This document shows, one piece after another, positions 1,744 through 61,728 of a DNA stretch of 64,000 nucleotides. A program made the position numbers and the translations under genes. The notes beneath the pieces are model-generated. The model was not told where the DNA came from, did not search any database, and worked only from the letters and a program-made list of their open reading frames with translations. The DNA comes from Bacteroidia bacterium (GTDB lineage: Bacteria > Bacteroidota > Bacteroidia > AKYH767-A > 2013-40CM-41-45), in NCBI GenBank assembly GCA_046330055.1, contig JAXLTM010000004.1:2547-66546 (forward strand), read 5' to 3'. Position 1 is the stretch's first letter; each line of letters starts with the position of its first letter.

Positions 1744-1778
1744 ATTAGCTAATTAGCTAATTAGCTAATTAGCTAATT
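1744..1778. repeat. (AATTAGCT)n self-complementary 8-mer array, about 4.5 units
   Basis: Direct reading: attagctaattagctaattagctaattagctaatt. Lies between the ClC start and the lepA end. Confidence 0.9.
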
Positions 1779-3567
1779 TATCAGAACTAACTTCAACATC
1801 GCTAAAAAAGGCCTGTTGCGGAATTTCTACGTTACGTATCTGACGCATACGCTTTTTACCTTCCTTCTGTTTCTCGAGGAGTTTACGCTGGAGATATCAC
1901 CTCCGTAACATTTTGCTGTTACGTCTTTACGCAAGGCTTTCACCGTTTCGCGGGCAATGATCTTTGTGCCAATGTTGGCCTGGATAATAATTTCAAACTG
2001 CTGACGCGTGATGAGCTCTTTCAGCTTTTCACACATCTTCTTTCCGAAATCATATAAGAATGCGAACGGTGAACGAGTGCCACAATGCATCCACCGGATC
2101 ACCACGAATGAATGTCGAGCTTCACCAGATCACTTCATGTAACTGATCGGATGATAGTCGAAAGAAGCATATCCTTTTGAAATAGATTTCAGTTTATCAT
2201 AAAAATCAAAAACGATTTCAGCAAGCGGCATGTTAAAAGCGTTCAACGCGATCTGTAGTGAGATAATGCTGACCCATGATGATACCGCGCTTTCCGATAC
2301 ACAAAGTCATGATAGCACCAATGAATTCTGCCTTGGTGATGATCTGTGCTTTGATGTATGGCTCTTCGATTTTCGAGGTGACCCGGATCCGGCATTTCAC
2401 TCTCGGATTGTGAATGTCGTTGACCTCGCCATTGGTCATATAGGCCTTATAAGAAACGTTGTGCACAGTGGTAATCACTGTCATGTTGAACTCGCGCTCA
2501 AGACGCTCCTGAATAATTTCCATGTGGAGCATTCCAAGGAAGCCGCAACGGAAACCAAAACCAAGAGCTGCTGATGATTCAGGCTGGAAAACTAACGAGG
2601 CATCATTCAGCTGAAGTTTCTCCATTGACTTGCGGAGCTCTTCGTACTCATCCGTATCAACCGGATAAATTCCGGCGAAGACCATCGGCTTCACATCTTC
2701 AAAACCTTTAACGGCCTCGGCACATGGTCTTTCAATCGAAGTAATCGTATCACCTACTTTTACTTCCGACGCTTCTTTGATACCGCTGATGATGTAACCA
2801 ACATCACCGGTTTTCACTACATCACGTTTTTCTTTATCGAGTTTTAAAATTCCGATTTCATCGGCGAGATATTCTTTTCCTGTCGCAACGAATTTTACTT
2901 TTTCGTTTGTGCGAATTTCACCATCCATTACGCGGAAGTAGGCAATGATTCCACGGAATGAATTGAAGACTGAATCGAAAATCAATGCCTTCAATGGTGC
3001 TGAAGGATCTCCTTTCGGAGACGGAATACGATTCACAATGGCTTCAAGAATTTCGTTGATGCCAAGACCGGTTTTGGCTGAGGCAGGAATAATCTCCTCA
3101 CGCTTACAACCAACCAGATCCACAATCTGATCTTTTACTACTTCCGGGTCGGCACTCGGTAAATCAATTTTGTTGAGGACAGGAATGATCTCCAATCCAT
3201 GCTCCAGCGCCAGATAAAGATTGGAGATAGTTTGCGCCTGAATACCCTGCGCTGCATCTACAATCAACAATGCACCTTCACAAGCTGCTATGGAACGGGA
3301 TACTTCGTAAGAAAAGTCTACGTGGCCCGGTGTGTCAATAAGATTCAGTGTATACTGTCCGCTTGCATTCTTATACTGCATCTGGATCGCATGGCTCTTA
3401 ATCGTGATACCACGCTCTCTTTCGAGGTCCATATCATCCAGTACCTGAGCCTGTAAATCTTTGGAACTGACCGTTTTAGTATACTCCAACAGTCGATCAG
3501 CCAGTGTGCTCTTACCGTGATCAATATGGGCAATAATGCAGAAATTGCGGATGTTTTTCATTTTCAA
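1773..3567 (-). pseudogene. lepA: Elongation factor 4 (LepA). The N-terminal 444 aa are intact; the C-terminal third is broken by several frameshifts as sequenced
   Basis: N-terminus [25 protein letters not shown] (GTPase G1). C-terminal pieces in other frames read [57 protein letters not shown] and QQAFLAMLK. Breaks at A4 2235-2238 and A6 1804-1809 are resolved by removing 1 nt. Confidence 0.8.
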
Positions 3568-3655
3568 CTCCTTGAACCTCTCCGTTCAGGGGCTGCGAAG
3601 GTAGGAAATTTGCGGGGAGGTGGCAAATGGTTGGCTGGTTGCCTGGTTGCACACA

Positions 3656-3691
3656 ATAATTCAGAATTCTGAATTCAGAATTCTGAATTAT
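3656..3691. repeat. Perfect 36-nt palindrome built from GAATTC words
   Basis: ataattcagaattctgaattcagaattctgaattat equals its own reverse complement. It lies 20 nt downstream of the histidine kinase stop. Confidence 0.9.
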
Positions 3692-3710
3692 CATCGAAAA
3701 CAACGGTTTC

Positions 3711-12161: not shown

Positions 12162-12491
12162 AATTAGCTAATTAGCTGATTAGCTAATTGAATGAGGGAA
12201 TTTAGTAGAGAGAAAAACCGCGGTTTCACTTTCCGGTCTTCGTAAGCAGGGTAAATCGAAGGCCGGGGGTGGCTGCGGGGGATTTGAATTGGCTAATTAG
12301 CTAATTAGCTGATTAGCTAATTAGCTAATTGAAAAAAGTTAATTGACACTGAAAGGAGATTTTAGGTTTTCAGCTTGTAAGAATTGGAATTTGCAGTCGT
12401 ATTTCAGTGCTAATTGGCCGCTATCAGCTATTGTCAGCTAATTGGCTAATCAGCTAATTGGCTAATCAGCTAATTGGCTAATCAGCTAATT
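12162..12491. repeat. Three AATTAGCT-type arrays filling the convergent czcA/metF gap
   Basis: Arrays at 12162-12189, 12287-12330 and 12409-12491. The last is a 16-mer variant (cagctaattggctaat, about 3.5 units). Confidence 0.9.
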
Positions 12492-16767: not shown

Positions 16768-17892
16768 TTAATAAGTGATTACTTGCTGTTCAAGTTGTAC
16801 GGGTAATTCACGGTATTCATATTGTTGATTACGCAACTGAGGAGTAAATCCTGCTTCACGGATAGCATTTTGAATTCCTTCGGAAGTAAAACGATGCGGC
16901 GCACCGGCAGCGCTTACGACATTTTCCTCAATCATGATAGAGCCGAAATCGTTGGCTCCGGAATGCAGGCAAATTTGTGCTACCTCTTTTCCAACCGTCA
17001 GCCAGCTGGCCTGAATGTTTTGAATATTCGGCAACATGATACGGCTTAAGGCAATGGTGCGGATATACTCCTCACCCGTTACATGATTCCTGACACCTTT
17101 GATGCGCTGCAACAACGTGCCTTCGTCCTGAAACGGCCATGGAATAAATGCAATAAACCCTTTTGCCGAGGCCGGCTTCTCACTCTGTACTTCACGTAAC
17201 CAGACTAAATGCTCGAAACGCTCTTCAATGGTCTCGACATGACCAAACATCATTGTCGCCGACGTGGTGAGATTAAGTTTGTGAGCTGCACGCATCACAT
17301 CAAGCCATTCTCGTCCGGAACATTTTCCTTTCGAGATCATTCGACGAACACGGTCGTTTAGAATTTATGCACCGGCGCCCGGCAATGAATCCAGTCCGGC
17401 GTCAATGAGAGCTTTTAAAACTTCCGTATGAGTAGAACCTTCCAGCTTGGTGATATGTGCAATTTCCGGTGGCCCTAATGCGTGAAGCTTAAGTTTCGGA
17501 TATAATTTTTTCAGTTCACGAAACAGATTCACGTAATACGACAATCCCAGTTCCGGATGATGTCCGCCCTGAAGCAGTAATTGCTCGCCACCGTAACGAA
17601 ATGTCTCTTCAATTTTTTTCTTGTACTGATCGATCGTCGTAATGTAGGCTTCCTCATGTCCGGGTATCCGGTAGAAGTTGCAGAATTTGCAATTGGCAAT
17701 ACACACATTAGTCGTATTGGAATTGCGGTCGATAATCCAGGTCACTATTGGTTCGGGATGCAGCTTCTTTTTCATGCTGAAAGCCACGTCCATCAGTTCG
17801 GCTGTGGGAGCATGTTCGAAAAGATATTGCCCTTCCGCTGCCGAAAGAAAATCAAAAGCTAATGCCCGTTGTAGGAGTTGGTCGGTATTCAT
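16768..17892 (-). pseudogene. CofH/MqnC/MqnE-type radical SAM enzyme (futalosine-pathway menaquinone biosynthesis) interrupted by one in-frame TAA
   Basis: ORFs 17365-17934 and 16768-17340 are in the same frame. The read-through is ...DSLPGAGA*ILNDRVRRMISKGK. CxxxCxxC = CIANCKFC. The stop at 17365-17367 sits where homologues have Glu (GAA). Confidence 0.7.
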
Positions 17893-17993
17893 CAAATAAA
17901 AACGGAATTTATCGCCCCGGCCCTTTCTTCGCAATCAGGCAAATGACGATGAATATTTTAGTAATTTTCCGCCCTTCAAAAATACAATATTAA

Positions 17994-19432: not shown

Positions 19433-19532
19433 AATTCTGAATTCTGAATTCTGAATTCTGAATTCTGAATTTCGAGTTTTGAAATTTAAAATCTAACATC
19501 ATATTCTGAATTCAGAATTCTGAATTCAGAAT
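19433..19532. repeat. (GAATTCT)5 array followed by a perfect 30-nt GAATTC-word palindrome
   Basis: Tandem array at 19433-19472. 19503-19532 (attctgaattcagaattctgaattcagaat) equals its reverse complement. Lies between pepA and pdxA. Confidence 0.9.
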
Positions 19533-19551
19533 TTAAACAAACCACTCTGCA

Positions 19552-20619: not shown

Positions 20620-20624
20620 CTTTT

Positions 20625-20690
20625 GCTCTTTGTGTCTAAAATTTTACCACTTAGACACGAGGCACAGAGAGTCACTTAGAGTGTTTAACA
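20625..20690. repeat. Hairpin element of the cacagag/cttagac word family in a convergent gap
   Basis: gtgtctaa (20631-20638) pairs with ttagacac (20651-20658). Followed by cacagagagtcacttagagtg. Related to the element at 46867-46936. Confidence 0.6.
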
Positions 20691-20698
20691 AAAGGATT

Positions 20699-21714: not shown

Positions 21715-23331
21715 TTACTGTAACGAAAGTATAAATTCGGTGAGATTGTCTTCCGTATTGAGCTGAAGTTTCTTTCTCAGCCTGTACCGGGCCGTCTTTA
21801 CGCTGTCAGGTGAAATGTTAAGAATGGCGGCCATTTCCTTGATGGAAAGATTCAATTTGATCAGCGCACAAATCTTCAGATCATTGGGGCTGATATCCGG
21901 ATATGCTGATTTAAGCTTTGCGTAGAAATTACGATTGACGCTTTCAAATTGGGCATTAAAATCGGCCCACTCCTTTTCTTCATTTCTAGCCTTGCCGATA
22001 GTTTTCATCAGCGGATTATCTCTGGTAACATTTTGATCCGACTGAATCTGTTCCTGCAATTCCTGTAACAATTCATTTTTACGAACCATCTGTAGTGTCA
22101 TTGCTGCCAACTGACTTTCCTTGTACTCGATTTCATTTTGTAAATGCTGTTCGCGCAATTTTTTCTGCTCTTCTTTGGTGACGAGCAATTCTTCCTTTGT
22201 TTTCAAAAGAAGCTTGTCGCGATTATGATTTCGGCGAATAAAGTATATAATAGTTGCGCCGATAATTAATAAGAAGGCCAGTGATGACCACAACAAATAG
22301 TTCACCCATTGCGAAACAGCCCTTTCTTCCTGAGCTTGTTTAAGCTGTCGTTCTTTTTCAGCTACATCAAACCGTACTTCGAGCGACTTTTGAATTTTTT
22401 CCTGTTCCCATTTTGTAAGCGAATCACGGGTTTTCAGAATTGATTCTGATGTTTGGTAGGCTGATTTAAAATCACCGACTTGTATATGATAGTTTTTAAT
22501 GGACTCGAGGACTTTTATATAGTATGTCCGGTCAGTCAGCCCTGAAGCGATAGTCAAAGCAGATTGAAAATAATTCCAGGAAGACTTTTTATCGCTTGAA
22601 AATTTCAATTGCCAGTTGCCCAGGCCCAGATTCACATCAGCCAAAGCCTGACGATTTCCTGTTGCTCCGGCAATATTGAGTGCAGAAGTGTACAATTCAA
22701 GGCTCTTGTCTTTATTTCCATTTTCAGCTTCCAGATCACCGACGAATTTCATGGAAACAGGAAGATAAACCGAATCCTTGATTTCAGTGAATAATGTCAA
22801 TGCTTTTCGATAGAAAAATTCCGACGAGTCATTTCTTCCGGTTTCGTGATATGCTTTTCCAAGACTATTATAAGCAACACCAAGATTGTTACTATCTCCT
22901 GTTTGTTCTAAAAGAGGAATAGCCGTTGTAGTCATATTAATAGCCTCTGAATAATTTCCCTGACGGCCTTTGATGGTACTGATCAGTTGCAGGCATCTTG
23001 CACGACCGAGCAAGGCCTTTTCAGGAGAGGATTTGGAAAATTTCTCATATTCTTTCATGGAACGCAGAGCGTAATCCATTCCATCGGCATAGCTGACACT
23101 GTAGGTGCAAATGCCCATGCGGTAGAGCGCTGTGGCAATATTGAAAGTGTCTTTTTCTGTAATGGCTTCTTCATAGGCGCGACCGAAAAGATTCAGTGCT
23201 TTTGTGTCGCTGTCGCGGATGAGCTCCTGCCAGCCGTTTTCCAGCAGTTGGTCGGATGCAGATTTGGCATGTGCGACTAACGTGGTGATTAGAAGAAAAG
23301 AAAGAAGAAAGAAATGCTTTAACGCTTTCAT
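21715..23331 (-). CDS. TPR-repeat, single-TM, LuxR-type HTH transcriptional regulator
   Basis: 538 aa with signal/TPR region, a TM segment (LLWSSLAFLLIIGATIIYFI), a coiled coil, and a C-terminal LuxR HTH (LSIKEMAAILNISPDSVKTARYRLRKKL). Confidence 0.8.
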   Translation of the reverse strand: MKALKHFFLLSFLLITTLVAHAKSASDQLLENGWQELIRDSDTKALNLFGRAYEEAITEKDTFNIATALYRMGICTYSVSYADGMDYALRSMKEYEKFSKSSPEKALLGRARCLQLISTIKGRQGNYSEAINMTTTAIPLLEQTGDSNNLGVAYNSLGKAYHETGRNDSSEFFYRKALTLFTEIKDSVYLPVSMKFVGDLEAENGNKDKSLELYTSALNIAGATGNRQALADVNLGLGNWQLKFSSDKKSSWNYFQSALTIASGLTDRTYYIKVLESIKNYHIQVGDFKSAYQTSESILKTRDSLTKWEQEKIQKSLEVRFDVAEKERQLKQAQEERAVSQWVNYLLWSSLAFLLIIGATIIYFIRRNHNRDKLLLKTKEELLVTKEEQKKLREQHLQNEIEYKESQLAAMTLQMVRKNELLQELQEQIQSDQNVTRDNPLMKTIGKARNEEKEWADFNAQFESVNRNFYAKLKSAYPDISPNDLKICALIKLNLSIKEMAAILNISPDSVKTARYRLRKKLQLNTEDNLTEFILSLQ

Positions 23332-23353: not shown

Positions 23354-23393
23354 GTCGATGCAATGCGAAATGTGATTGTGAAAGCTTAAAATA

Positions 23394-23534
23394 TTTCCCA
23401 CGGAAACTCACGGAAATAAAAATGAAATCACGGAGAGTGGGGTTTCCTGCAGATTAAAGCTGAAAAAAAAATGGACGGCGCAGAAAACAAAACTCTACTA
23501 AGCAACTAAGCAACTAAGCAACTAAGCAACCAAC
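23394..23534. repeat. About 140-bp 3'-flank element, copy 1 (cacgga words plus AAGCAACT array)
   Basis: tttcccacggaaactcacggaaat...aaatcacggagagtggggtttcctgcaga...(ctaagcaa)n. Closely parallels 54137-54260. Abuts the stop of the esterase gene. Confidence 0.75.
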
Positions 23535-24780: not shown

Positions 24781-24891
24781 GGCTTGGTTGCTTGGTTGCT
24801 TAGATGCTTAGTTGCTTGGGTAAATATAGAAGTTTTTTGAAGTGCCGTGGTTGGGGGTTTATTGAATATTGAAAATAGAATATTGAATATT
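24781..24891. repeat. GCTTGGTT/GCTTAG word array plus left remnant of an ATTGAATATT array
   Basis: 24781-24818 reads ggcttggttgcttggttgcttagatgcttagttgcttggg. 24861-24891 reads attgaatattgaaaatagaatattgaatatt, directly abutting the IS end. Confidence 0.85.
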
Positions 24892-24919
24892 TGACCTAGC
24901 CTGAAATAGGTTGACTTTT

Positions 24920-25846: not shown

Positions 25847-25860
25847 CTTGTAAGTATGAT

Positions 25861-26283: not shown

Positions 26284-26303
26284 CCTATTTCAGGCACGGA
26301 CAA

Positions 26304-26558: not shown

Positions 26559-26588
26559 AAAAAAGGCCCGTAATTACACGAGCCTTTT
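26559..26588 (-). terminator. Rho-independent terminator of the 26609-28147 gene
   Basis: The sense strand reads aaggctcg-tgtaatta-cgggcctt followed by TTTTTGTG. The stem is 8 bp with one G-U pair and lies 21 nt after the stop. Confidence 0.6.
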
Positions 26589-40293: not shown

Positions 40294-40486
40294 AATTGGC
40301 TAATTAGCTAATTGGCTGATGTGCTAATTAGCTAATGTGCTAATTGGCTAATATACCAATGGGTTGGGCTAAAAACTGTGAATCGTAAAGATACTTCTTA
40401 GAATCTGCAAACAGGATTGCCATTGTTCAACTCCTTTTTTGCCGGAATCCATTAGCTAATTAGCTAATCAGCCAATTAGCTAATTC
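40294..40486. repeat. Two inverted AATTAGCT/AATTGGCT arrays forming the arms of a 226-bp intergenic palindrome
   Basis: The arrays at 40294-40352 and 40451-40486 are roughly reverse-complementary. The outer ends carry ggggcgaaggta / taccttcgcccc, abutting both start codons. Confidence 0.85.
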
Positions 40487-45039: not shown

Positions 45040-45079
45040 AGATAGAGCTAAAAATGAAGCCGGGGCTGCGTACTACTTC

Positions 45080-45187
45080 TTTTTTCACCACAGAGATCAC
45101 ATAGTCCACGGAGGACCACATAGAGGTCTCTCGCGAGGGCACCTTTGTGATCCTTCGTGAATCTTGTGTCCTCTGTGGTAAAAAAAA
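45080..45187. repeat. T-run / long hairpin / A-run element, same family as 34166-34432
   Basis: ttttttcaccacagagatcacatagtccacggaggaccacatagagg...ggcacctttgtgatccttcgtgaatcttgtgtcctctgtggtaaaaaaaa. Shares the core ccac.tagagg...ggcacctttgtg.t.ctt.gtg.at. Lies 3' of rnhA. Confidence 0.8.
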
Positions 45188-45203
45188 TTATAAGAATAGG
45201 CGC

Positions 45204-46866: not shown

Positions 46867-46936
46867 TTTTTTTTACCACTAAGGCACTAAGTCACAGAGA
46901 AGCACTAAGTGTCTCTGTGTCTAAGTGGTTATTTTT
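46867..46936. repeat. T-run / hairpin / A-T-run element (ctaagt/cacagag words)
   Basis: ttttttttaccactaaggcactaagtcacagagaagcactaagtgtctctgtgtctaagtggttattttt. The accacttag / ctaagtggt arms are complementary. Confidence 0.75.
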
Positions 46937-46945
46937 CGCCTTGAC

Positions 46946-47477: not shown

Positions 47478-49883
47478 ATGTTAGAGGCAGCGGCAAGGAT
47501 AATTTTACGGTACAGGCTCGTTACACTGATTGTGCTTTTAGCACTCACAGGCTTCATGGCCTATATGGCCACTTTTGTGAAGCTCAGTTATGAAGGCGCT
47601 AAGATTTTACCTCCCTCCGACTCCACCTATGCCGAGTATCTGAAGTTTAAGCAGAAATTCGGCGAAGACGGTACCGTCATGGTCATCGGTTTTCAAAGCG
47701 ACAGCATCTGGAACCGCCCGATGCTGGCCGACTGGTACGATCTGAGCATGAACGTCAAGTCAATCGAAGGAATTCAGGAAGTGATTTCGATTGCACGTGC
47801 TTTTTACGTCACACGAAACGACAGTCTGCACAAACTCGACTTCAAACCGCTGCTCAATCACCGGCCGGAATCACAGGCTGAAGCAGATTCACTGCGGGAG
47901 AAAATCAATCAGCTTCCGTTTTACGAAGGACTTCTCTACAATCCGGAAACGAAAGTTACGCTGATGGCGATTACACTCGATCAGACAAAGCTGAACACGA
48001 AAAGCCGCATCGACATCGTTAATCACGTTAAAGATCTGTCTGAACAATTTGCACAAAATCATAAAGTGCAATTGCACTACTCCGGATTGCCATATATCCG
48101 TACCGCTGTTTCGCAGAAAATTCTGGCGGAGATGAAAATGTTCATGGCCCTGGCTATTCTCGTGACGGCACTGATTCTTTTCTTCTTCTTCCGAAGTCTA
48201 TATCCGGTTATCTTCCCGATGATCGTCGTTATCTTCGGCGTTATTTTCTCCTTTGGCACACTTCATCTTTTCGGATTTAAAATTACCATTCTCACCAGTC
48301 TCATTGCTCCGCTGATCATCGTCATCGGCTTACCGAATTGCATTCTTCTTCTCAACAAATACCAGCAGGAATATGCGCGTCATGGAAATAAAGTAAAAGC
48401 TCTTGCCCGTTCCATCTATAAAATCGGCGTCTCTACTTTCTTTGCCAACGTTACGACTTCTATCGGATTTTTAGTTTTCGCCTTTACACAAAGTGATGTA
48501 TTGATTGAATTCGGTTTGATCGCTTCTATCAATGTAATGATCACTTATCTGATTTCATTGATTCTTATTCCGATTGTCTTTAGTTATCTTCCTGCTCCTT
48601 CGCCGAAACAAATTCGTCACCTCGACAGAAAAGCACTCAACTTCATTCTAGACAAAATCGATCATTGGGTGCATGCTTATCGTCCGCGCATTTATGTGAC
48701 TGTAATTCTCATTGTTGCCATCAGTATTTATGGCATGTTGAAGATTACAACCGTTGGCTACGTAGTGGATGATCTTCCGAAGAAAGACATCATTTACCGT
48801 GACCTGAAATTCTTCGAAGCTAACGTTCGCGGTGTGCTTCCTTTTGAAATCACGATTGACACGAAAAAAGAACGCGGTGCGCTTGAACTGAAGACACTTT
48901 ACAAAATCAATCGCGTTCAGAAAATTCTGGCCAACTACAAAGAATTCAGCGAGCCTGTTTCTATTGCGGAAGGAATTAAATTCTCCTATCAGGGCCTGAA
49001 CGATAACGATCCTAAACGTTACATCATTCCAACAGCGCAGGAACTTGCCCGTTTATCAGGCTATGCGACGGATGCGAAAGGAAATTCAAAAATGTTCAAG
49101 TCGATTATCGACAGCACCAAGCAGGTAACGCGCATCAGTTTTCAGGTAGCAGATATCGGATCAATAAAAATGAAAGCGCTGCTCGGCGAATTACGTCCGC
49201 GTATTGATAGTATTCTTGACCCGAAGGAGTACAATGTCCGAATCACCGGCAACTCCATCATCTTCCTGAAGAATAACGACTACCTCCTGCTTAATCTGAA
49301 AGAAAGTATTTTACTCGCCATTCTTCTGATCGGTTCGGTGATGTTCTTCCTGTTTATGTCGGTGCGAATGGTAGTGATTGCACTCATCCCAAGCATGACA
49401 CCGCTACTACTTACAGCTGCAATGATGGGCTACTTCGACATTGCACTTAAGCCATCAACGATTCTGATTTTCTCGATTGCCTTCGGTATTGCCTCTGACG
49501 GGACGATGTATTTCCTCACCAAGTATCGTCAGGAATTACGCAAGCATGGCGGAAGTATTTCAAAAACCGTTTCCACTGCCATTCAGGAAACAGGTCCGAG
49601 TATGATCTACACGGCCGTTATCCTCTTCTCCGGCTTTTTCATTTTCACTGCCTCCAGTTTCGGAGGAACTTCTGCACTCGGCATTCTGATCTCTGTAACG
49701 CTATTGATCGCCATGATTTCCAATTTGGTTTTCCTGCCAACACTTCTTCTTTCACTTGAAAAACGAATCATCACCCGTGCCTTCCTGAAGGAACCACTCT
49801 TCGTAGTCTTTGATGAAGATTCAGATGTGGAGTTGGAGGAGTTGGAGGTGAAGGTCGAAAGCGGGGAAGCGAAGGAAGATTAA
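47478..49883 (+). CDS. MMPL/RND-superfamily exporter (12 TM, two sterol-sensing-like bundles)
   Basis: 801 aa with two six-helix bundles, each preceded by a soluble loop. No adaptor or outer-membrane factor gene is adjacent. Confidence 0.75.
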   Translation: MLEAAARIILRYRLVTLIVLLALTGFMAYMATFVKLSYEGAKILPPSDSTYAEYLKFKQKFGEDGTVMVIGFQSDSIWNRPMLADWYDLSMNVKSIEGIQEVISIARAFYVTRNDSLHKLDFKPLLNHRPESQAEADSLREKINQLPFYEGLLYNPETKVTLMAITLDQTKLNTKSRIDIVNHVKDLSEQFAQNHKVQLHYSGLPYIRTAVSQKILAEMKMFMALAILVTALILFFFFRSLYPVIFPMIVVIFGVIFSFGTLHLFGFKITILTSLIAPLIIVIGLPNCILLLNKYQQEYARHGNKVKALARSIYKIGVSTFFANVTTSIGFLVFAFTQSDVLIEFGLIASINVMITYLISLILIPIVFSYLPAPSPKQIRHLDRKALNFILDKIDHWVHAYRPRIYVTVILIVAISIYGMLKITTVGYVVDDLPKKDIIYRDLKFFEANVRGVLPFEITIDTKKERGALELKTLYKINRVQKILANYKEFSEPVSIAEGIKFSYQGLNDNDPKRYIIPTAQELARLSGYATDAKGNSKMFKSIIDSTKQVTRISFQVADIGSIKMKALLGELRPRIDSILDPKEYNVRITGNSIIFLKNNDYLLLNLKESILLAILLIGSVMFFLFMSVRMVVIALIPSMTPLLLTAAMMGYFDIALKPSTILIFSIAFGIASDGTMYFLTKYRQELRKHGGSISKTVSTAIQETGPSMIYTAVILFSGFFIFTASSFGGTSALGILISVTLLIAMISNLVFLPTLLLSLEKRIITRAFLKEPLFVVFDEDSDVELEELEVKVESGEAKED

Positions 49884-50143
49884 TTCTGAATTCTGAATTC
49901 TGAATTCTGAATTCTGAATTCTGAATTCTGAATTCTGAATTCTGAATTCTGAATTCTGAATTTTAATTCTATAGGATTGAGATTGTGAAATAAAATTAAT
50001 TCTGAATTCTGAATTCTAAACTCAAATTCGAGAGGATTGAGATTGCGAAAGAAGATTAATGCTGAATTATAAATTCTAATTCTATAGGATTTAGATTGCA
50101 CAAGGAAATCAATTCAGAATTCAGAATTCAGAATTCAGAATTT
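49883..50143. repeat. Composite satellite: (GAATTCT)~11.5, three 53-60-bp units, then inverted (AGAATTC)~4.5
   Basis: The pure 7-mer array runs 49883-49963. aggatt(g/t)agattg cores sit at 49973, 50033 and 50086. The opposite-orientation array runs 50111-50143. Confidence 0.9.
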
Positions 50144-50173: not shown

Positions 50174-50440
50174 ATGTATACTATAAATTCATTTATTCTG
50201 TCGAGAATAAAAACGATTGAGATGATCGGTGTGCTCATGCGCATCTTTAGCTTTTCACTCGTAAGCTGGCTGGGACCGAATAGTCCGTTCGTTTTTGTTT
50301 GGGTCTTTAATACGACAGACGCTATACTTCTCTCCTGGTGCGCAATTCTGAAAAAAGACAAGGCTTATACTGTGCTAAACGTTTTCTGGGTGTTGATTGG
50401 GGTGATAGGGGTGGCAAGGGCGATGGGGTGGTTGCATTAG
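50174..50440 (+). CDS. Small hypothetical membrane protein (about 88 aa, 3 predicted TM)
   Basis: Start taken at MYTINSF, after the repeat-derived part of ORF 50096-50440. The body is hydrophobic (FSFSLVSWLG, FVFVWVF, VFWVLIGVIGV). No family recognised. Confidence 0.4.
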   Translation: MYTINSFILSRIKTIEMIGVLMRIFSFSLVSWLGPNSPFVFVWVFNTTDAILLSWCAILKKDKAYTVLNVFWVLIGVIGVARAMGWLH

Positions 50441-50693: not shown

Positions 50694-50797
50694 GCAGAAA
50701 TAATTCAGAATTCAGAATTCAGAATTTTGATTCCCCTACCCTTGCCCAATTCAATATTCAATATCCAATATTCAATTTTCAATATTCAATATTCAAC
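50694..50797. repeat. Composite repeat, left copy: GCAGAAATAA, (AGAATTC)3, C-rich spacer, (ATTCAAT)n
   Basis: Read directly. It ends 3 nt before the decaheme cytochrome stop codon (50801-50803, minus strand). The partner copy is at 52317-52413. Confidence 0.8.
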
Positions 50798-52316: not shown

Positions 52317-52413
52317 GCAGGAAATAAAATTCTGAATTCTGAATTCTGAATTTGCAATACCCCGCAGCTCACCGCAATTTTCAATATTCAATATTCAATA
52401 TTCAATATTCAAT
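52317..52413. repeat. Composite repeat, right copy: GCAGGAAATAA, (GAATTCT)3, C-rich spacer, (ATTCAAT)n
   Basis: Read directly. The last 19 nt overlap the 3' end and stop codon of the 52395-53570 gene. Confidence 0.8.
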
Positions 52414-53583: not shown

Positions 53584-54096
53584 TTAATCCTTCAGATCAA
53601 AAGCCGCCTTCACTGCGGAGTAATTTGTCCAGTCAAGATCAGGATTCGCTTTTCTGCCTGCAGATGCAACAGCCACTACTTTTACAAAAACCGTTGAAGT
53701 AGGTGCCTGAGTAAAGAAGTCGCTGTCCTGCATATCGAGAACGAGATTATTCAACTGATAGGAAAAAATCCAAGACTCTGAGTAATTTGCAGAGCCGGTA
53801 CCTGTCGGATAGGTATATGGTAAGGCAGTCCACAATGTTCCGTTTCCGCTAACATACACATTCACGGCACCGGTATTTACGATGTCTTGTGTAAGAATGG
53901 AAATTATCTGCGATGTTTCCCAACGTTCTCCGGGTACGCCGCTGGTTCCGATATGATACCATTGATTGGCCGGAATGGAAAGTGTGACGGATTGCACATT
54001 GGCATTTCCCTGCGGGCCTTGCGGGCCTTCAGGGCCGCGTTCACAAGCTGAGAAGGAAATGACGAGAAGAAGAATGGCTAAGAATGGGGTTTTCAT
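53584..54096 (-). CDS. Lipoprotein with a short collagen-like G-X-Y stretch
   Basis: Has a LLLVISFSAC lipobox followed immediately by ERGPEGPQGPQGNA. No family recognised for the remainder. Confidence 0.6.
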   Translation of the reverse strand: MKTPFLAILLLVISFSACERGPEGPQGPQGNANVQSVTLSIPANQWYHIGTSGVPGERWETSQIISILTQDIVNTGAVNVYVSGNGTLWTALPYTYPTGTGSANYSESWIFSYQLNNLVLDMQDSDFFTQAPTSTVFVKVVAVASAGRKANPDLDWTNYSAVKAAFDLKD

Positions 54097-54136: not shown

Positions 54137-54260
54137 TTTCCCACGGAAAGCGCGGAAATTAAATATTGAAATCACGGAAAGGGGTTCCCGCAGAAACGCG
54201 GACAAAAAGATAAAAGCGCAGACTTTCCCAACAAAGCAACCAAGCAACAAGGCAACTAAA
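54137..54260. repeat. About 125-bp 3'-flank element, copy 2
   Basis: tttcccacggaaagcgcggaaattaaatattgaaatcacggaaaggggttcccgcagaaacgcgg...aagcaaccaagcaacaaggcaac. Parallels 23394-23534 and lies 3' of a T9SS cargo gene. Confidence 0.75.
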
Positions 54261-54314
54261 AAAGGGGAGCTCCGCCCAACACAGAACTCCCCTGACCTGC
54301 AAGCAGGTTTATCT

Positions 54315-56552
54315 TTAATGTATCACACTGATGCCGGTATTATAAACGCCTTTGTCGGTAATGCAACGGAGATGATACATGCCGGTGCTGAGCGAAGAAA
54401 GCGAAATATTTGTGTGCGAATTTTCAGTGCGACGGAAATACACTTCTCTTCCGGCGGCATCGAAAATGCTGATGGAACGAATTTGTAAATCGTGGCTGTA
54501 CACATTCAGCTCTGTACTTGCAGGATTAGGATACAGGAGAAAATGTGAAGTGAGATCAGCTTCTGCAATGGCATTGTAATTCGGATCGATTGTTACGGTG
54601 TCGTTCTGACGCGCAACAGGAAGTACCATCTGAGAATAAGTAATGGCATTCACATTTGTCAATCGGAACAATGCATCAGTAACAGTCGAAATATTGTCAA
54701 CTACCACTACATCGAACATTCCAAGATGCCCGATTCCGTTTCCGACATTATTATGATCTGTGCGAGTCAGTGCTACATCAATTCTTCCAATCGTCGGGAA
54801 ATGACGAACAAAAGCAATCATATCTGAACCGAGTGTTCCCAACCAGGAACCTGTCCAGTCCATGACAATGGAATTGGTATCAATTAAAGTAGGATCGTAT
54901 TCGAGTGAGAAGGCAATGCCGTACATACTGTCGACAGGAAGCTGGTTTGTTCCCATTTGGATGTCGACGTGAACGCTGCCGCTTGGCAATACCGTATCAG
55001 GAAATGCTTCCAGATAAAGTGGCGGTGCATTGACGGCATCGGTCGTATTCACCGGACCTGCATAACGGGCGGGATGATTGAGTCCGTAGTTCTGAGAAAT
55101 AGCAATTGTATCTGACAAATCTACTACACCGTTTCCGTCGCAATCGGCATGTTTCATATTTACTCCTGTGTTGAAGTAATGCGTGAAATCCTGCACCGGT
55201 TGTGCTGTCCATGATGTGCTTGCACCACTTCTTACCGGACCGGTTTCATTCATTGCCACACCGATGTTGAGGATGTCAAGATTATCACAATTGAGATCGT
55301 AGTTGGCATCACCCGGCCACACATCGGAAGTAACTGTGCACGGAGTGAATTGCCATCCGGTATTTCCTCCGAGATCCACACAGCCGTTTCCTGCAAAGCA
55401 TTGTGCTGTACCAAACATCTGCATGTTTTCGAGTAGTGCATTGCTCAAACAAACATCGTTGCCATTTACAGTGAAATTTAAAAATGAAGAACCTTTCAAA
55501 TAACATGGAAATGCTGCAGTACCATTTGAAAGCAACAAATTATTCACCTGAATATTCCCTTGCAGATTGGTGATTTGTCCGGGGTTGTTGAAGAATAATG
55601 TATCAATGACGAAAGCTCCTCCCATCGTTGTATAATCAAAGAAGATGGCTTTACCAATGGTATCGGGACTCACACCGTTTGCAGTGATTTGTGTAAGACC
55701 GTACGCAATAAGCTGATTACACTTAAACGGCACCGACCAGAAAGAAGCATTTGGCATAAGTGCTGTAATGTTGTGAAACGTGCCGCCCGTGCGGAATGTA
55801 TTTCCAAATGAATAATAACCGGGAGCGAAAACATCCATGATGACATCGGTCGATTTGGAATTGATCACCGTTCCATCCAGTTGAAGGTGTGTAATAGTAA
55901 GAGTGAGCGGACCTAATTCGATGGTTGTACCGACACTGCTTATAATTCTCGACGATTTAATATCGTGATTTTGTGCATTGAATCCGCCGCTGAGCAGTTG
56001 AATATCCTGAGCAATTAAATCATCATCGATCAAAACCGTACCTGTTCCGTCGAATACCAGGTTCAATACCGTATTTCCGGCTACATGAAAAACAACATTC
56101 TGAGATCCGCCTGCACGAAGTGTCAGATTGGTCAACCCCCAGTTCATCGCAGGAGCCAGGGTAATTGCTCCATACACCGTAAGAGAACTTCCGTTGATTT
56201 GAATATCATTTCCGGCATTTGTAAAATCAATTGACTTGCAACTTGCATTTGAATTATCAACTGATACAGTACCTGAAGCTACACCGGAGGAAGCATCGAA
56301 AATAATGTCATCATTCAATGTCGGCAGACATTCACCGCCTGTGCCGCCGCTGCTTAACGACCAATGTAACGGATCACTCCAGTTTCCGCTTCCTCCAACC
56401 CAATAGAGAGTACGAGGGGACGAACCTGTGATTGTCCAGCCGCTGTTACCTCCGGCATCAATACTATTCGTTGCCGTAAAACTTGCACCTCCGGAAGCGG
56501 CAATGCCGGATAAACTTACATAGCTCACGGAAACGTTTCCACTATTGGTACA
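54315..56552 (-). pseudogene. C-terminal part of a modular T9SS adhesin (module 3, cohesin/dockerin-like region, CTD), severed by IS insertion
   Basis: The frame is open right up to the IS boundary (..CTNSGNVSVSYVSLSGIAASGG). Has a YWVGGSGNWSDPLHWSLSSGG module start, DCDGNGVVDLSD (dockerin-like), and CTD LLYPNPASTELNVY...STGMYHL. Confidence 0.8.
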
Positions 56553-56615
56553 TGGCTGACTTTTTCGGACAGGTTAAAAATAGATTTTATATCTTAACCT
56601 CAATGAAAAACAACA

Positions 56616-56877
56616 ATGAAAAAGTCAAAATTCACAGAAGAACAGATTATTTCCATTCTTAAGGAACAAGAACAAGGATTGAAAGTGGCAGAGATTTGCC
56701 GTAAGCATGGCATAGCCGATCAAACATTTCACAACTGGAAAAAGAAGTATGGCGGTCTTTCTATGAACTTCGCCGTTGAAAGAACTGGAACAGGAGAATA
56801 GCCGACTCAAACGAGCAGTTGCAGACCTGACACTGGACAATCAAATTCTTCGGGACGTCAACTCAAAAAAATGGTAA
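56616..56877 (+). pseudogene. IS3-family transposase OrfA, 1-nt frame break as sequenced
   Basis: MKKSKFTEEQIISILKEQEQGLKVAEICRKHGIADQTFHNWKKKYGGLS, then a shift to LKELEQENSRLKRAVADLTLDNQILRDVNSKKW. The break is at the AA run 56766-56767. Confidence 0.75.
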
Positions 56878-57683
56878 CGGCCGAGCATAAGGAGCAATGC
56901 GTTACTTATGTTGTGAATACCTACCAAGTAAAGCATGCTCGGGCGTGTAGATTATTTAATTGTTCCAGAAAGAACAGATATTATCAAAAGCGAATGCCGC
57001 TCAAAGATGAGCCCATTAAAGAAGCGATTCAAGAAGTTCTTAAAAACAAGAAACGCGGACGTAGAAAGGTGATAAAAATGGTTCAGAAAAATTATCCTCA
57101 ATTTACAGAGAGTAAAATTCGGAGAGTTTATACTCAGAATGGATTTTCTCTGCATAAAAAATTAAAGCGCAGGACAAAAGACAATCCGAAAAACCCAATA
57201 GAAATTGCTCTGGCTCCTAACTTAGAATGGGCAATTGACTTTATGAGTGATTCGCTGGCTACCGGCAGAACTTTCAGAACCTTGAATGTGATTGACCATT
57301 ATAACAGAGAATGTAAAGGAATTCAAATCGGATACAGTTTACCGGCTGTACGAGTAATCGAATTCCTGGAAGAGATTATCTCAACTCATGGAAAGCCCAA
57401 TCGGATTCGCACAGATAATGGACCGGAGTTTACGTCAAAAGCATTTCAACTATGGCTTTGGAATAATAATATTGAATGGAGTAAAATCCAAAAAGGAAAG
57501 CCACAGCAGAACGCAATTATTGAACGATTCAATAAAACCGTTCGGGAGGACTTGTTAGACGCAAACTTATTCTTCAGTCTGGAACACGCGCACGAACTGA
57601 AAGACGAATTTGTTCGTGAATATAATTGCGAACGTCCGCATGAATCATTAAACGATAAAACACCAATGGAATATGCTGCGTAG
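56871..57683 (+). CDS. IS3-family transposase OrfB (DDE/rve)
   Basis: WAIDFMSD, IRTDNGPEFTS and QQNAIIERFN form the DDE triad context. The ATG lies within the A7/TGG overlap with orfA. Confidence 0.85.
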   Translation: MVTAEHKEQCVTYVVNTYQVKHARACRLFNCSRKNRYYQKRMPLKDEPIKEAIQEVLKNKKRGRRKVIKMVQKNYPQFTESKIRRVYTQNGFSLHKKLKRRTKDNPKNPIEIALAPNLEWAIDFMSDSLATGRTFRTLNVIDHYNRECKGIQIGYSLPAVRVIEFLEEIISTHGKPNRIRTDNGPEFTSKAFQLWLWNNNIEWSKIQKGKPQQNAIIERFNKTVREDLLDANLFFSLEHAHELKDEFVREYNCERPHESLNDKTPMEYAA

Positions 57684-57872
57684 GTTTTCTTCAGGCATGG
57701 TCCCTCTGAAATGTAAAAAGCAGGCACAACTTGTACCTGCCTTTGTTACGACATTTCGTCGGGCGAACCTATCCCTGGCAAGTTGCACCTCTGCAGAGCT
57801 CGCTTCCGTTTTAGTTCAAAACAATATTCAGCGGATTAAACTATATTTACAAACTGTCGAAAAAAGCAGCCA

Positions 57873-59941
57873 TGTTCATATTCCTTACAATCGATGAACT
57901 TGAAGAGGCAGAAGAGGATTGAATTGTCACCATGCCGTTACAGTTGGCATCTACCTGCATGTGAGCATTGATGGTAAATGCTTCCTGCGTTCAGTGTGAC
58001 AGTAGAGCCGATTCTGCAAAAAGAGTGAGTCGGCCTGATTATCACCCTGTGTTTTCCAAATCACCTGTAACATAAAATGATTTGAAATAATTTCCGTGAG
58101 TCATTAAAAAACTCTGATCGGCCACAACAAGATTTGCCGTTACGTTTGTATCACATGAACCGCCAATCGGCCAATAAATTTATCATATCACCGCTGTTGT
58201 ACAATGTGCCATTGTTTTGATCAAAATCAGCGTAGTTGAAGTCGAGCCGGTCTGCAAACCACGAACCATAATTCCCCCTGCATAGATGGTCGCATTAGTC
58301 ATATTTACTTCAGCGTTCGGATTAGATGAAAGCACTCCTACCTGAATGGCATGACCTCCTAAATTCAACACTCCAATACTGCTGACAAGCGTATTGATTC
58401 GCGTTGAGTCGGTAATTGTATATTCTCCTCCGCCAACTACTTCTACCCAGTTAAAGGAATTTCCTGAAGTTGTAAAATGCATTCCGGTGTTTGGCGAATT
58501 CAAATGAAGCGTTGTATTCGGCCACAGGATCGGCGACAATACGTCGAAGTTACCATACACATAAAAATTATCGCCGGAGAATGACGGAACTGCAGTGAGA
58601 CCGCTGATAGTTACATCGCCGGCTGATGCACTTGTTCCAAAATTCACAGTCGCACTGCCTGAAAACGATAATGCATCAAAGAAAACATTATCGGCCTCAT
58701 TCGGACTACAAACGGTTGGTGCTCCGCCGCTGGTGAGCGACCAGTGATTGACATCGCTCAGTCTCCGCTTCCGCCTACCCAGTACATGTTGCGTGGCGTA
58801 ACACCGGTAATTGTCCAGCCGGTATTATTTCCTGCATCAAATGAGTTGTCAGCTAAAAACGTTGCACTGCCGTAGCATTTATACCATAGATTTTTACATA
58901 ACTGATATGGACGTTCGATGATGTCACATTCAATGTTGCTGAAGCACCGCTTCCGATGCCTCCGCCTATCAATGAGCCGAAACTGTTACAATCGCCCAGC
59001 ATTTGAAAGGATCCGCTTACACTCAAAGTCACACTCTGTTGCAGATATACATCCTTACCGGAAAAATTAACAAAGTTACCACTCACCACATAGCTCGAGC
59101 CGGGAAATACTCCATCGGTTGCATTCACACTCTGAATAATTGCATTGTTGCCTGAGTACACATAATTAGCAGTGATACCTCTGACTGCACCGCTGGTGAA
59201 TATGACAGAGTCAATTGCAGAGAAGCAATTCACTGCAGTTAAATCAACTAATGGTGCATCGGATTTAATTACAAATTGTGAAGAGTTCAGAATGTTGCCA
59301 TTGATATTAATTTGTCGTGCGTAGAGATCGGTTGGTAATCCGTGGATAAATAATGTCGACTGGCCGGCATCCATCGCTGCTGTTCCGGCTTTGGTAAAGG
59401 AGTAGCAACTCAAATCATATCCATTGCAATCCAACGTTCCATATTCAATATCGATTTGATTGCCTGAACTAAGATCGCTTCCAAGTTGATAGGTTGCAGT
59501 TCCTGTTTGTGTCACACCTGAAAAAGTTTTGCCGAATGTGCTGAGCACATTTACGCCTGAGTTTGACGGCAATTTCAATTCAAGGTAAGTAACATCCATT
59601 CCGGTATCTAAAACCAGTGAGCCATAAAGATTCAACGCACCTCCGTTTCCGGAAAATTCCGGATGGTTGGTTACACCGGCCCAGGTCATATTATGACAGA
59701 AATAGAATGTAGAATCGAATAGCAACTTTTGTCCGGGAGCTGTAAACGAGTTGGCGTCAATTACGATATCATCATTAATCGTCGGTATGCCGGACTGAAA
59801 CACATTACCGCCACTTGTGGTTGCCCAGTGATTTGCAAAATCACTCCAACTGCCGGTACCCCCGACCCAATAGAAGGTTGCTGCCCTGGTGGCAGATGAT
59901 AGCAGCAGGATGAGTAGCGACAGAGAGGTAAACTTTTTCAT
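57873..59941 (-). pseudogene. N-terminal part of the modular T9SS adhesin (signal peptide, module 1, module 2), with several frame breaks
   Basis: MKKFTSLSLLILLLSSATRAATFYWVGGTGSWSD starts at 59941. Module 2 (MYWVGGSGD-WSDVNHWSLTSGG) starts near 58775. ORFs 58853-60040 and 58183-58647, plus unlisted frames, read consecutively. Confidence 0.7.
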
Positions 59942-59994: not shown

Positions 59995-60129
59995 TTCCGA
60001 ACCTCAGGAAATAAAAAATACATTTTAATGCGTTTGCCACCTACCTTTTTTCATGAATTTAACACTTTTACCCATAAATGCCTATTTTTTTATTGATTTT
60101 TTGCCTGTTTGCCGAATAGCTGATTTTTG

Positions 60130-60137
60130 TATATTTG
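60130..60137 (+). promoter_or_regulatory. Candidate -7 box TATATTTG
   Basis: Perfect TAnnTTTG match, 16 nt upstream of the ATG at 60154. Confidence 0.45.
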
Positions 60138-60153
60138 ACCAACCCCGCCAACC

Positions 60154-61566
60154 ATGCGCATTTTCAAGGTATCTGAGCTCCTGTCTGCACTCAAGCCACA
60201 TGAAAAAACGGCTTTCGGTGATTTCCTGCGCTCGCCATTTCATAATCAAAACGGGACTTTGCCGCAACTGTATTCGTTATTGCTCGAAGACTCTTCCCTG
60301 CACCTTGAGGCCAACAGAAAAGACATCTACCGACATTTGTTTCCGGGGAAAAATTATAGCGACAAAGAAGTACGCTACATTTTTACAGAATTCAATCGCT
60401 TGCTTGAACATTTCTTTGCCATCCGTGAATTCGAAAAAGACAGCAGAGAATATTTGCTCACTACTCAGCGTGCCTTGTTAAAGAGAAAAGCCGGCAAGGC
60501 ATATGCACATGCACGACTTCGCTTTAACGGCCTGGAGAAAACCGAAAACGCTTACTATTATTTAGACCGGTTTCGTGCTGCTGAATTATTTCACAGCTTT
60601 CAGAGCTCATCGCTATCCCGCTTGAGTGAAAGCGACTATGATGAAATCCTTTCCGGTCTCGACAAATTTTACTTCCTGCGGAAATTACAATTGCAGTGCG
60701 AGCTTGTCAATTTGAAAAACATTCTGAAAAAAGAATACAACAACCAACTGATCCGCGAAATTTCTATTCTTACCGTTGCCTACAACTATTTCAATTCACC
60801 GTTTCTTGAAATTTACTATCACATTCTTCAGATGCTGACAATTGACGACGAAGAAACAGAGAATCATTTCAATTCTGTCGTCCTTCTGATCAAAAAGCAT
60901 CAGAGTAACTTTCCTGTTGCCGATGTAAATTACATTTATCAGTACGTAAAGAATTTTTGTATCCGCAGAATCAATAAAGGTGAAGATGCTTACCGGCAAA
61001 AGCTCTTTGAAATTTATAAAGAGATTTTATCGAACAGGCGAATCATGAACCACGATTACTTTTCTCCGTTTGAGTACAAAAATATCGTCACACTTGGTCT
61101 GCGACTGAATGAAGACAAATGGGTAAAACAATTTATTCCGAAATACATTAACTACCTCCCTCCTGCCGACCGCAAAAATGCGCTGACCTACAATACCGCT
61201 ATGCTGAATTTTTATCTGAAGAATTACCGAATGGTGATCAAAGGTCTGCAGGAAGTTGAATTCACCGATCTTTATTATCAAATGGACTCCCGCTCCATCC
61301 TCCTGAAAGTTTATTTTGAAACCGACGAAACAGAAACTATGCTCCACCATATTTCCGCTTTCAAAATCTTCTTACGGCGCAATAAACTCATTTCCGATTT
61401 CCAACGAAGTATTTACCAGAATTTCATTCGCTATACATTGAAAATATTCCGCGCCGGCCAAAGTAAATCCAAACTTGAAAAGCTGCGCTCCGAAATCCTT
61501 TCTGCCGGAAATATTTCGGACAGGAATTGGTTGCTGGAGAAGGTGAATGAAGAATTAGCAGATTAG
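60154..61566 (+). CDS. Hypothetical all-alpha protein (470 aa), no family recognised
   Basis: Long uninterrupted ORF with helical-repeat-like composition and no signal peptide or TM segment. Its stop codon lies in an ATTAGC-word array. Confidence 0.6.
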   Translation: MRIFKVSELLSALKPHEKTAFGDFLRSPFHNQNGTLPQLYSLLLEDSSLHLEANRKDIYRHLFPGKNYSDKEVRYIFTEFNRLLEHFFAIREFEKDSREYLLTTQRALLKRKAGKAYAHARLRFNGLEKTENAYYYLDRFRAAELFHSFQSSSLSRLSESDYDEILSGLDKFYFLRKLQLQCELVNLKNILKKEYNNQLIREISILTVAYNYFNSPFLEIYYHILQMLTIDDEETENHFNSVVLLIKKHQSNFPVADVNYIYQYVKNFCIRRINKGEDAYRQKLFEIYKEILSNRRIMNHDYFSPFEYKNIVTLGLRLNEDKWVKQFIPKYINYLPPADRKNALTYNTAMLNFYLKNYRMVIKGLQEVEFTDLYYQMDSRSILLKVYFETDETETMLHHISAFKIFLRRNKLISDFQRSIYQNFIRYTLKIFRAGQSKSKLEKLRSEILSAGNISDRNWLLEKVNEELAD

Positions 61567-61728
61567 CAGATTAGCTAATTTGCTAATTTGCCAATTCACC
61601 TTTACAAACTCCATTCTTATAAAGACTGAGCACACTTTATTGCTGAAGAAATAATTTAAGTCTCATATTAGCGTATTAGCTAATGAGCTAATTAGCTAAT
61701 TAGCTCATTAGCTAATTGATTTTAACAA
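61553..61728. repeat. Two ATTAGC(T/A)-word arrays in the convergent gap
   Basis: 61553-61595 reads attagcagattagcagattagctaatttgctaatttgccaatt. 61666-61728 reads attagcgtattagctaatgagctaattagctaattagctcattagctaattg. Confidence 0.9.

Follow-up and report, generated by a model that had tools for sequence, protein, structure and literature searches.

Self-complementary heptamer and octamer arrays between the genes of a Bacteroidia bacterium, and the slippage that changes their length

Why does the non-coding DNA of a bacterium hold so many short self-complementary words repeated head to tail, and do these arrays serve the genes beside them? The question is raised by a stretch of 64,000 nt from an uncultured Bacteroidia bacterium (assembly GCA_046330055.1, contig JAXLTM010000004.1, positions 2,547 to 66,546 of the forward strand). 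We call this whole stretch the window and use its own coordinates. An initial annotation, made from the sequence alone, had described the arrays as a lineage-specific, slippage-expandable system of hairpins, terminators or protein-binding sites. Our analysis favours another answer, to which we give a probability of roughly 55%: the arrays would be largely neutral products of slippage, built from palindromic words that promote further copies of themselves. We have no evidence that they serve a specific function.

Arrays of the window and the design of their words

Arrays were called with Tandem Repeats Finder (TRF) at periods 7 and 8 and at least 2.8 copies. The window holds 30 such rows, against 0.57 in whole-window dinucleotide shuffles and 0.1 in gap-wise shuffles. 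Non-coding DNA is about 10% of the window and contains 28 of the 30. TRF returned a period-7 or period-8 array at every coordinate of the initial annotation. However, its statement that nearly every gap is filled was too strong. An array is present in 17 of the 31 gaps of at least 30 nt, and arrays take 18% of the gap bases. Among divergent gaps, 2 of 7 carry one. The arrays at 24782-24891 and 26395-26555 are real, but they flank an insertion of the IS3 family rather than occupy a simple gap between genes. The arrays are the following, with the strand where one was assigned.

1744-1778: (AATTAGCT)4.4, a perfect 34-nt palindrome starting 2-3 nt past the lepA stop; on the minus strand it continues as ACTTTTTC, then a TACCTTCG box
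3628-3650, minus strand: (GCAACCAG)2.9, related to the array 24782-24819 and likewise not palindromic; the lepA start lies about 60 nt downstream of it
3658-3689: (AATTCAGAATTCTG)2.3 within the 36-nt palindrome 3656-3691, 21 nt past a histidine-kinase stop
12162-12189: (AATTAGCT)3.5, 4 nt past the stop of a resistance-nodulation-division (RND) pump gene
12287-12330: (AATTAGCT)5.5, placed centrally within a convergent gap; Logan contigs stop inside it
12434-12491: 16-nt unit (AATCAGCT+AATTGGCT) in 3.6 copies, adjoining the MTHFR stop; 2, 3.6 and 5 copies across three assemblies
19433-19533, plus strand: (AATTCTG)5, a spacer, then alternating AATTCTG/AATTCAG, between pepA (M17) and pdxA
23497-23530, plus strand: (AAGCAACT)4.2, non-palindromic and without a fold, 4 nt past the stop of the 23535 gene
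24782-24819, minus strand: (AAGCAACY)4.8, non-palindromic, in sense orientation, ending 5 nt before ATG 24776 of an esterase gene of the type IX secretion system
24860-24891: (TATTGAA)4.6, adjoining the end of an IS3 element
26395-26426: (TATTGAA)4.6, inverted relative to the array 26443-26555
26443-26555: (TCAATAT)16.7 with a 14-nt higher-order unit, directly behind the terminator 26559-26588; one unit shorter in four other assemblies
28227-28270: (AATTAGCT)5.5, including the 36-nt perfect palindrome 28239-28274
31201-31221, plus strand: (TAGTAAG)3, non-palindromic, in a divergent gap; the word also forms arrays in the genome JADKIH
34483-34520: (CTAATTA)5.4, 15 nt past the stop of a SprB/CotH gene
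40294-40352: degenerate AATTAGCT in 7.4 copies, within a divergent gap; its end lies about 9 nt upstream of a TACCTTCG box
40451-40485: (ATTAGCTA)4.4 in the same divergent gap as the 40294 array, ending 3 nt upstream of a TACCTTCG box
49882-49970, plus strand: (AATTCTG)12.9, starting within the TAA stop of an MMPL gene; 9 copies in strain L086 and 8 in L087; three short-read contigs stop inside it
49998-50017, plus strand: (AATTCTG)2.9, from TRF
50111-50142, plus strand: (AATTCAG)4.6, inverted relative to the 49882 array; one unit shorter in L086 and L087
50439-50486: mixed AATTCTG/AATTCAG/AATTCAA, starting at the TAG (50436-50438) of a 72-aa gene
50702-50726, plus strand: (AATTCAG)3.6; one unit shorter in L086
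50749-50796: (ATTCAAT)6.9, with the stop of the 50801 gene 4 nt away
52328-52352, plus strand: (AATTCTG)3.6, from TRF
52375-52413: (CAATATT)5.6, covering the last 19 nt and the stop of a GT87 gene
54229-54256, plus strand: (CAACAAAG/AAGCAACC)3.5, non-palindromic, directly behind the terminator 54293-54263
61554-61596: degenerate ATTAGCAG/ATTTGCTA, overlapping the stop of the gene 60154-61566
61667-61717: (ATTAGCTA)6.4, including a 42-nt perfect palindrome and overlapping the stop of an OmpA-family gene

Few words account for these arrays. They are AATTAGCT with its one-base variants, GAATTC plus T or A, AATATT plus C or G, and TAATTAC. The non-palindromic words are AAGCAACT/GCAACCAG and TAGTAAG. 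The AATTAGCT family provides 9 of the 13 octamer arrays, and the octamer is essentially absent from the rest of the window outside arrays. The palindromic design proposed by the initial annotation stands far above chance. Self-complementarity is maximal for a 7-mer in 14 of the 15 heptamer arrays (12.7% expected from random words), and it is perfect in 7 of the 13 octamer arrays (2% expected). The long perfect palindromes are also confirmed. Five were found, of 30-42 nt (1744-1777, 3656-3691, 19503-19532, 28239-28274 and 61675-61716). The array density is about 0.45/kb, around 6 times the 0.07/kb of 80 unselected Bacteroidota loci. The G+C content of the window is 38-47% in 2-kb windows.

Arrays often occur in pairs 70-220 nt apart, with a unique core between them. 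Between the inverted (AATTCTG)n and (AATTCAG)n arrays, the segment 49938-50136 presents about 3 copies of a 53-60-nt higher-order repeat (ATTCTATAGGATTGAGATTG...).

Over 10 independent assemblies of this organism, taken from ENA and Logan and derived from other samples, contain the same arrays. Several short-read contigs stop inside arrays, as real repeats would cause. An assembly artefact is ruled out by these independent assemblies together with a difference in copy number between two short-read assemblies.

Whole-unit variation and the long simple-sequence repeats

The window was aligned with further assemblies of this organism, at an identity of 98.7-99.9%. Beyond the first 2.4 kb, nearly all indels between them are steps of whole array units. 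The array at 19433 gains 7 nt in strain L001, which is one unit. The position 26529 loses 7 nt in four assemblies. Likewise, 7 nt are lost at 50111 and at 50702, and 21 and 28 nt at 49882. The segment 12409-12445 changes by multiples of the 16-nt double unit, which results in the 2, 3.6 and 5 copies listed above. In total, 6 of about 21 comparable arrays differ between assemblies by 7, 16, 21 or 28 nt. Over about 40 kb of alignment, the only indels outside arrays are a 1-nt change within a run of T and the replacement of one hairpin.

These differences are real polymorphism, since two short-read assemblies differ in copy number. Every array is shorter than the assembler k-mer implied by the k141 contig names. 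Point substitutions are not elevated in the arrays (4 in 839 nt, compared with 0.29% in coding sequence). Variant units spread as direct neighbours and as the higher-order units of 14 and 16 nt that TRF detects within arrays, as slippage predicts. Replication slippage drives the gain and loss of whole units or whole double units. The comparison of array lengths across close assemblies, which the initial annotation had proposed, therefore confirms that the arrays are slippage-expandable.

The first 2.4 kb behave differently. Between positions 1 and 2400, about 30 small indels relative to L001 split lepA, which encodes 596 aa in that strain. A radical-SAM gene at 16768-17934 is also split in the window and has 374 aa in L001. 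Either indel errors of the window assembly or real pseudogenes would explain both cases.

The arrays avoid coding DNA well beyond this genome. In 661 kb of pooled Bacteroidota loci (81% coding), 276 of 290 period-7/8 arrays lie outside open reading frames (ORFs), and 0 of 91 perfect AATTAGCT runs lie inside one. Periods 7 and 8 dominate the tandem repeats of the AATTAGCT-carrying genomes and of 80 LepA-selected Bacteroidota loci. With respect to the upstream gene, 6 of 7 arrays are oriented so that they supply stop codons on the sense strand. This count is uninformative because it is partly circular: an array without stops would be read as an ORF. The false TTG start at 24923 is an instance of it. 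The true start of the 23535 gene is ATG 24776, which leaves the array 24782-24819 in the position of a 5' untranslated region (UTR).

This behaviour corresponds to a known class. Long simple-sequence repeats (SSRs) were defined by Mrazek et al. (2007) with units of 5-11 nt, heptamers being the commonest class, as summarised in PMC4679880. Heptamer tandems are weakly over-represented in Bacteroidetes (Huang & Mrazek 2014, PMC4060949), and long heptamer arrays have been reported in members such as Flexibacter, Gramella and Aequorivita (PMC4679880). Long SSRs and the window arrays share head-to-tail units of 7-8 nt beyond chance length, the dominance of heptamers, a patchy phylogeny and slippage as the accepted mechanism. 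Since their units are not multiples of 3 in length, both are kept out of coding sequence. Tandem units beyond chance, exclusion from coding sequence and whole-unit polymorphism were all found in the window arrays. They differ in that most of their words are palindromes, which makes every array an inverted repeat of itself. They are also about six times denser than in the unselected Bacteroidota loci, and many start at a stop codon.

A second likeness concerns the short tandemly repeated repetitive (STRR) sequences of cyanobacteria and the TAACTGA arrays. As in the window, few lineage-specific heptamer words form many intergenic arrays, of 2 to about 40 copies, by a dispersal mechanism that is not known. 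The STRR heptamer words are CCCCAGT, TTGGTCA and CAACAGT. Neither these words nor TAACTGA are among the TRF consensus units of the window and its relatives. TAACTGA arrays occur in Beggiatoaceae, cyanobacteria and five Bacteroidetes (MacGregor 2015, PMC4679880). In the Orange Guaymas genome (BOGUAY), the TAACTGA sets lie just upstream of gene starts and in one orientation, the forward one. In contrast, the window arrays lie mostly after stops and without orientation, and only the AAGCAACY array at 24782-24819 has a placement similar to TAACTGA.

The initial annotation did not recognise a described family. For the exact words this agrees with a text search of the literature, which did not find them. 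However, the class of long simple-sequence repeats is already described. Three features seem to lack an earlier description: the set of palindromic words used by this genome, the distribution of (AATTAGCT)n over Bacteroidota and the anchoring at stop codons.

The preferred reading is then as follows. The arrays are simple-sequence (microsatellite-like) repeats of 7 or 8 nt, of the long-SSR class, and hardly any are tolerated outside non-coding DNA. Expansion has mostly taken place in words made of a palindrome plus one base, or of two 4-nt palindromes, which would make each array self-complementary. Hairpins in the slipped strand probably stabilise the misalignment, and palindromic words may expand more readily for this reason. 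The arrays would come to fill the DNA that can be spared between a stop codon and the promoter that follows it. Most of them are probably neutral or weakly useful, as a generic AU-rich 3' hairpin or as a spacer. They are unlikely to be dedicated terminators or operator sites.

Stop codons, hairpins and the spread of one word

Several observations weigh against this reading. The first is the anchoring at stop codons, with percentages that rest on rough ORF-based gene calls and with the window cases checked by hand. Arrays of AATTAGCT in other genomes start within 5 nt of a stop in 62% of cases (random-placement null, 25%). Other words in those genomes do so in 28% (null, 7%), and the window arrays in 32% (null, 4%). 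Slippage cannot shift the edge of an array towards a stop codon, so it leaves this anchoring unexplained. A neutral route may exist. Deletion bias would strip the unique spacer while the arrays regenerate, until stop, array and promoter abut. The initial annotation had placed most arrays at 0-20 nt from stops. A majority was not found (12 of 28 arrays start within 20 nt, and 11 of 28 within 5 nt after curation and correction of the array 50439), but the enrichment is strong.

The second observation is the recurrence of one word. We scanned one genome per GTDB species for (AATTAGCT)3, and all counts are among the matches listed. At least 81 stretches were found, almost all in Bacteroidota and mainly in Chitinophagales, and (AATTAGCT)n is present in at least 45 Bacteroidota genomes. 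The Chitinophagales carriers are Ferruginibacter, Ginsengibacter, Segetibacter, Flavisolibacter, Hanamia, Taibaiella and Longitalea. Other carriers belong to Sphingobacteriales, Lentimicrobiaceae, Saprospiraceae, Capnocytophaga and Dysgonomonas, and one is a Deferribacteraceae metagenome-assembled genome (MAG). Cultured bacteria among the carriers are Longitalea luteola SYSU D00799, Capnocytophaga gingivalis CCUG 13096 and Dysgonomonas sp. 511. A single MAG, JADKIH01, holds 21 of the stretches. The loci of other genomes were fetched with a 24-nt seed, which confounds the length distribution of perfect runs. Slippage does not account for this recurrence, nor for the presence of one word at many unlinked loci, as in the nine octamer arrays of the window. 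The term lineage-specific suits the palindromic heptamer repertoire and not (AATTAGCT)n.

The third observation comes from lepA. A contig of JADKIH (L041, JADKIH010000008.1) is syntenic with the left end of the window, and the LepA proteins are 85-91% identical. It carries (ATTAGCTA)4.4 at the lepA stop, with the same word, position and copy number as the window. In other Bacteroidota, the 3' side of lepA presents a classical hairpin with a U-run, a plain array, or a hairpin armed with repeats. The arms of the latter consist of a tandem array and its inverted copy (L103, L169, L102, L109 and L110). Together with the anchoring at stops, the recurrence of one word and the shared lepA array, the terminators and repeat-armed hairpins at this one site hint at selection for a 3' hairpin. 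Upstream of lepA, the two genomes hold different words: (CCCGCAA)23 at 4270-4431 of L041, and the GCAACCAG and GAATTCW arrays in the window. Since (CCCGCAA)23 is G+C-rich and non-palindromic, the choice of word is not bound to A+T richness.

For these reasons, a role at gene 3' ends similar to that of repetitive extragenic palindromic (REP) sequences stays the main rival. The palindromic arrays, above all (AATTAGCT)n, would be selected as RNA hairpins that act as a U-tract-free terminator, a barrier to 3' exonucleases or an insulator from the stop codon, with slippage regenerating the array. We consider this explanation tentative and somewhat unlikely. The palindromic arrays do fold strongly as RNA (z from -3.3 to -9.4, dG from -9 to -33 kcal/mol). 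Conversely, the AAGCAACT-type arrays have no fold (z of +0.3 and +0.6), and neither has the TAGTAAG array. The hairpin of the initial annotation thus holds for the palindromic words only. Among non-palindromic arrays, 15-23% have an inverted partner array within 150 nt, as a hairpin role would favour. However, the heptamer words of the relatives and of the 80 LepA-selected loci have a self-complementarity of about random level. In JADKIH01 the further array words are AATCAGCT, AAGTAGT, AACCCGC, AACTCGC, AAAGTTC, AATATTC and AATTCAG, most of them non-palindromic.

The window arrays share with Rho-independent terminators a hairpin soon after the stop, and differ from them in their AU-rich stems and the missing U-tract. 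After 55 stop-abutting AATTAGCT arrays from many genomes, the next 10 nt contain a mean of 2.6 T, with at least 5 T in 7 of the 55. In the remaining 48 the U-tract is missing. A generic terminator scan of the window stays at shuffle level. These two results rule out a canonical terminator. The array 1777-1744 on the minus strand, taken together with ACTTTTTC, does score as terminator-like. Genuine terminators lie directly ahead of arrays at 26559-26588 and 54263-54293. The latter (54293-54263, minus strand) forms a stem of 13 bp, 7 of them G-C, and TTTTTT comes after it. With it, and with several long hairpins flanked by T or A runs, the window exceeds the single classical terminator of the initial annotation. 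Divergent gaps also hold arrays, including 13 of the 82 AATTAGCT arrays from elsewhere, and one array of the window lies in a 5' UTR. Moreover, the array of 101 nt in the pepA-pdxA gap of 124 nt ends just 18 nt before the next start codon. The term terminator, in the canonical sense, does not apply.

Selection for pairing should also leave its mark on the variants. Across the 245 variant positions of 116 AATTAGCT arrays, compensated variants in mirror symmetry number 14, against a null of 26 +/- 5.6. This shows no enrichment, and selection for stem pairing is unsupported. It also places the compensated pair in 61675-61716 within chance. Finally, the copy number drifts among near-identical strains, contrary to what a selected hairpin would suggest.

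The arrays are only partly like REP, BIME and REPIN sequences. These are many-copy extragenic palindromes of 24-45 nt, often 3' of genes and sometimes in inverted pairs (PMC3733652, PMC3116915), with proposed roles in mRNA stabilisation and termination. The window does contain many-copy extragenic palindromes of the 20-40-nt kind, as its perfect palindromes of 30-42 nt indicate. However, REPs are non-periodic, imperfect palindromes with a GTAG/CGTC tag, and they are tied to the RAYT transposase (PMC3733652). The window arrays are strictly periodic, change by unit steps and are tagless (55 arrays with their flanks).

A more specific version can be formulated. The (AATTAGCT)n arrays and their palindromic sisters would be a selected 3'-end element of Chitinophagales-like Bacteroidota, bound by a putative specific factor. 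The element would work as a U-tract-independent terminator or as a protector of mRNA ends, and slippage would maintain it without a transposase. We regard this version as doubtful, more so than the general one.

Other explanations, neighbouring elements and consequences

The arrays might instead act as DNA. They would then be sites for a dimeric DNA-binding or nucleoid protein, cruciforms, or decoys or targets of restriction-modification. The words are of the type read by dimeric proteins and type II enzymes, and GAATTC, AATATT, AATT and AGCT are well-known sites of restriction enzymes. The arrays of many loci draw on the same few words, and three of them have their ends 3-11 nt upstream of TACCTTCG boxes. 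Nevertheless, we judge this explanation improbable. A period of 7-8 bp sets successive sites on different faces of the helix. The non-palindromic words behave alike, and no candidate binding protein was identified. Outside arrays, the hexamers occur at Markov-expected levels (GAATTC 40 vs 40.0, AATATT 53 vs 48.7, TAATTA 19 vs 22.1). With neither avoidance nor enrichment, there is no restriction-modification signal, and this link is ruled out.

The TACCTTCG motif has five copies in the window. Four are intergenic and face the downstream gene, and three of these come directly after an array. The intergenic boxes are:

1733, minus strand: TACCTTCG box
3603, minus strand: TACCTTCG box
40287, minus strand: TACCTTCG box
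40489, plus strand: TACCTTCG box

By its letters, the box resembles the -7 promoter element of Bacteroidetes. At 40287 and 40489 it lies 4-5 nt ahead of an ATG, which suggests very short or absent leaders. Regarding phase variation, no array lies within a real ORF. The arrays end upstream of the -7-like box, so their copy number would not alter the spacing of the core promoter. A separate observation concerns two similar TTTCCGTG-type repeat blocks at 23390-23450 and 54140-54200. They lie about 50 nt upstream of TATCTTTG boxes, which also resemble -7 promoter elements. They precede the minus-strand genes for a protein with TPR and sigma-70 r4 domains (21715-23331) and for a 170-aa protein (53584-54096). 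These blocks could be a shared operator.

The least probable explanation is a mobile element or enzyme, that is, spread in the manner of a REPIN or of a MITE (a miniature transposable element with inverted repeats), or templated insertion: one word does sit at many unlinked sites in many genomes, array pairs do surround a unique core and a second hairpin class is replaced between strains, but an alignment of 55 array flanks reveals neither conserved sequence nor terminal repeats, and neither target-site duplications nor GTAG/CGTC tags, unrelated cores separate the paired arrays, no Y1/RAYT transposase is among the annotated genes of the 64-kb window and its strain loci, and the terminal inverted repeats, conserved core and target-site duplication of a MITE were not found. 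A phage origin is ruled out by just 1 and 2 matches of the arrays in 2.9 million viral contigs.

The second class of repeats consists of long hairpins. Their arms are built from degenerate CAC(A/G)NAG-type units, each about 9-10 nt long, and T and A runs flank them. The members are:

20620-20698: swapped for another member of the class in strain L001
34166-34430: a 134-nt tandem duplicate, in single copy in L092
43125-43248: long hairpin of this class
45075-45200: -56 kcal/mol, z of -8
46880-46945: long hairpin of this class

They look like bidirectional terminators or mobile REP-like elements.

The window also contains two unrelated IS3-family elements (HTH_Tnp_1 and rve), at 24899-26295 and 56547-57878. 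The first has 16-nt inverted ends CCTGAAATAGGTTGAC (at about 24899 and 26295) and lies between AATATT arrays. The short-read contigs L091-L095 stop inside it. Strains L086 and L087 lack the second. The large genes of the window encode type IX secretion tails (Por_Secre_tail, CHU_C), SprB repeats and TonB-dependent receptor domains. No tRNA or tmRNA gene was found in the window, and an Rfam search of it at gathering thresholds returned no family. In an Rfam search by E-value, the repeat hairpins match only models of eukaryotic miRNA precursors, all below threshold.

What do these arrays mean for the organism? If they are only products of slippage, they break short-read assemblies, as the contigs that stop inside them indicate, and they would serve as hypervariable strain markers for uncultured Bacteroidia. 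Self-complementary repeats can take up about a fifth of the intergenic DNA of one lineage, and it is then a question how this lineage tolerates long palindromes. Should selection lie behind the stop-codon anchoring and the wide distribution of (AATTAGCT)n in Bacteroidota, the arrays would point to a way to end or protect transcripts without the classical hairpin and U-tract. In the case that the arrays are 3'-end elements, they would represent a new kind of REP-like element.

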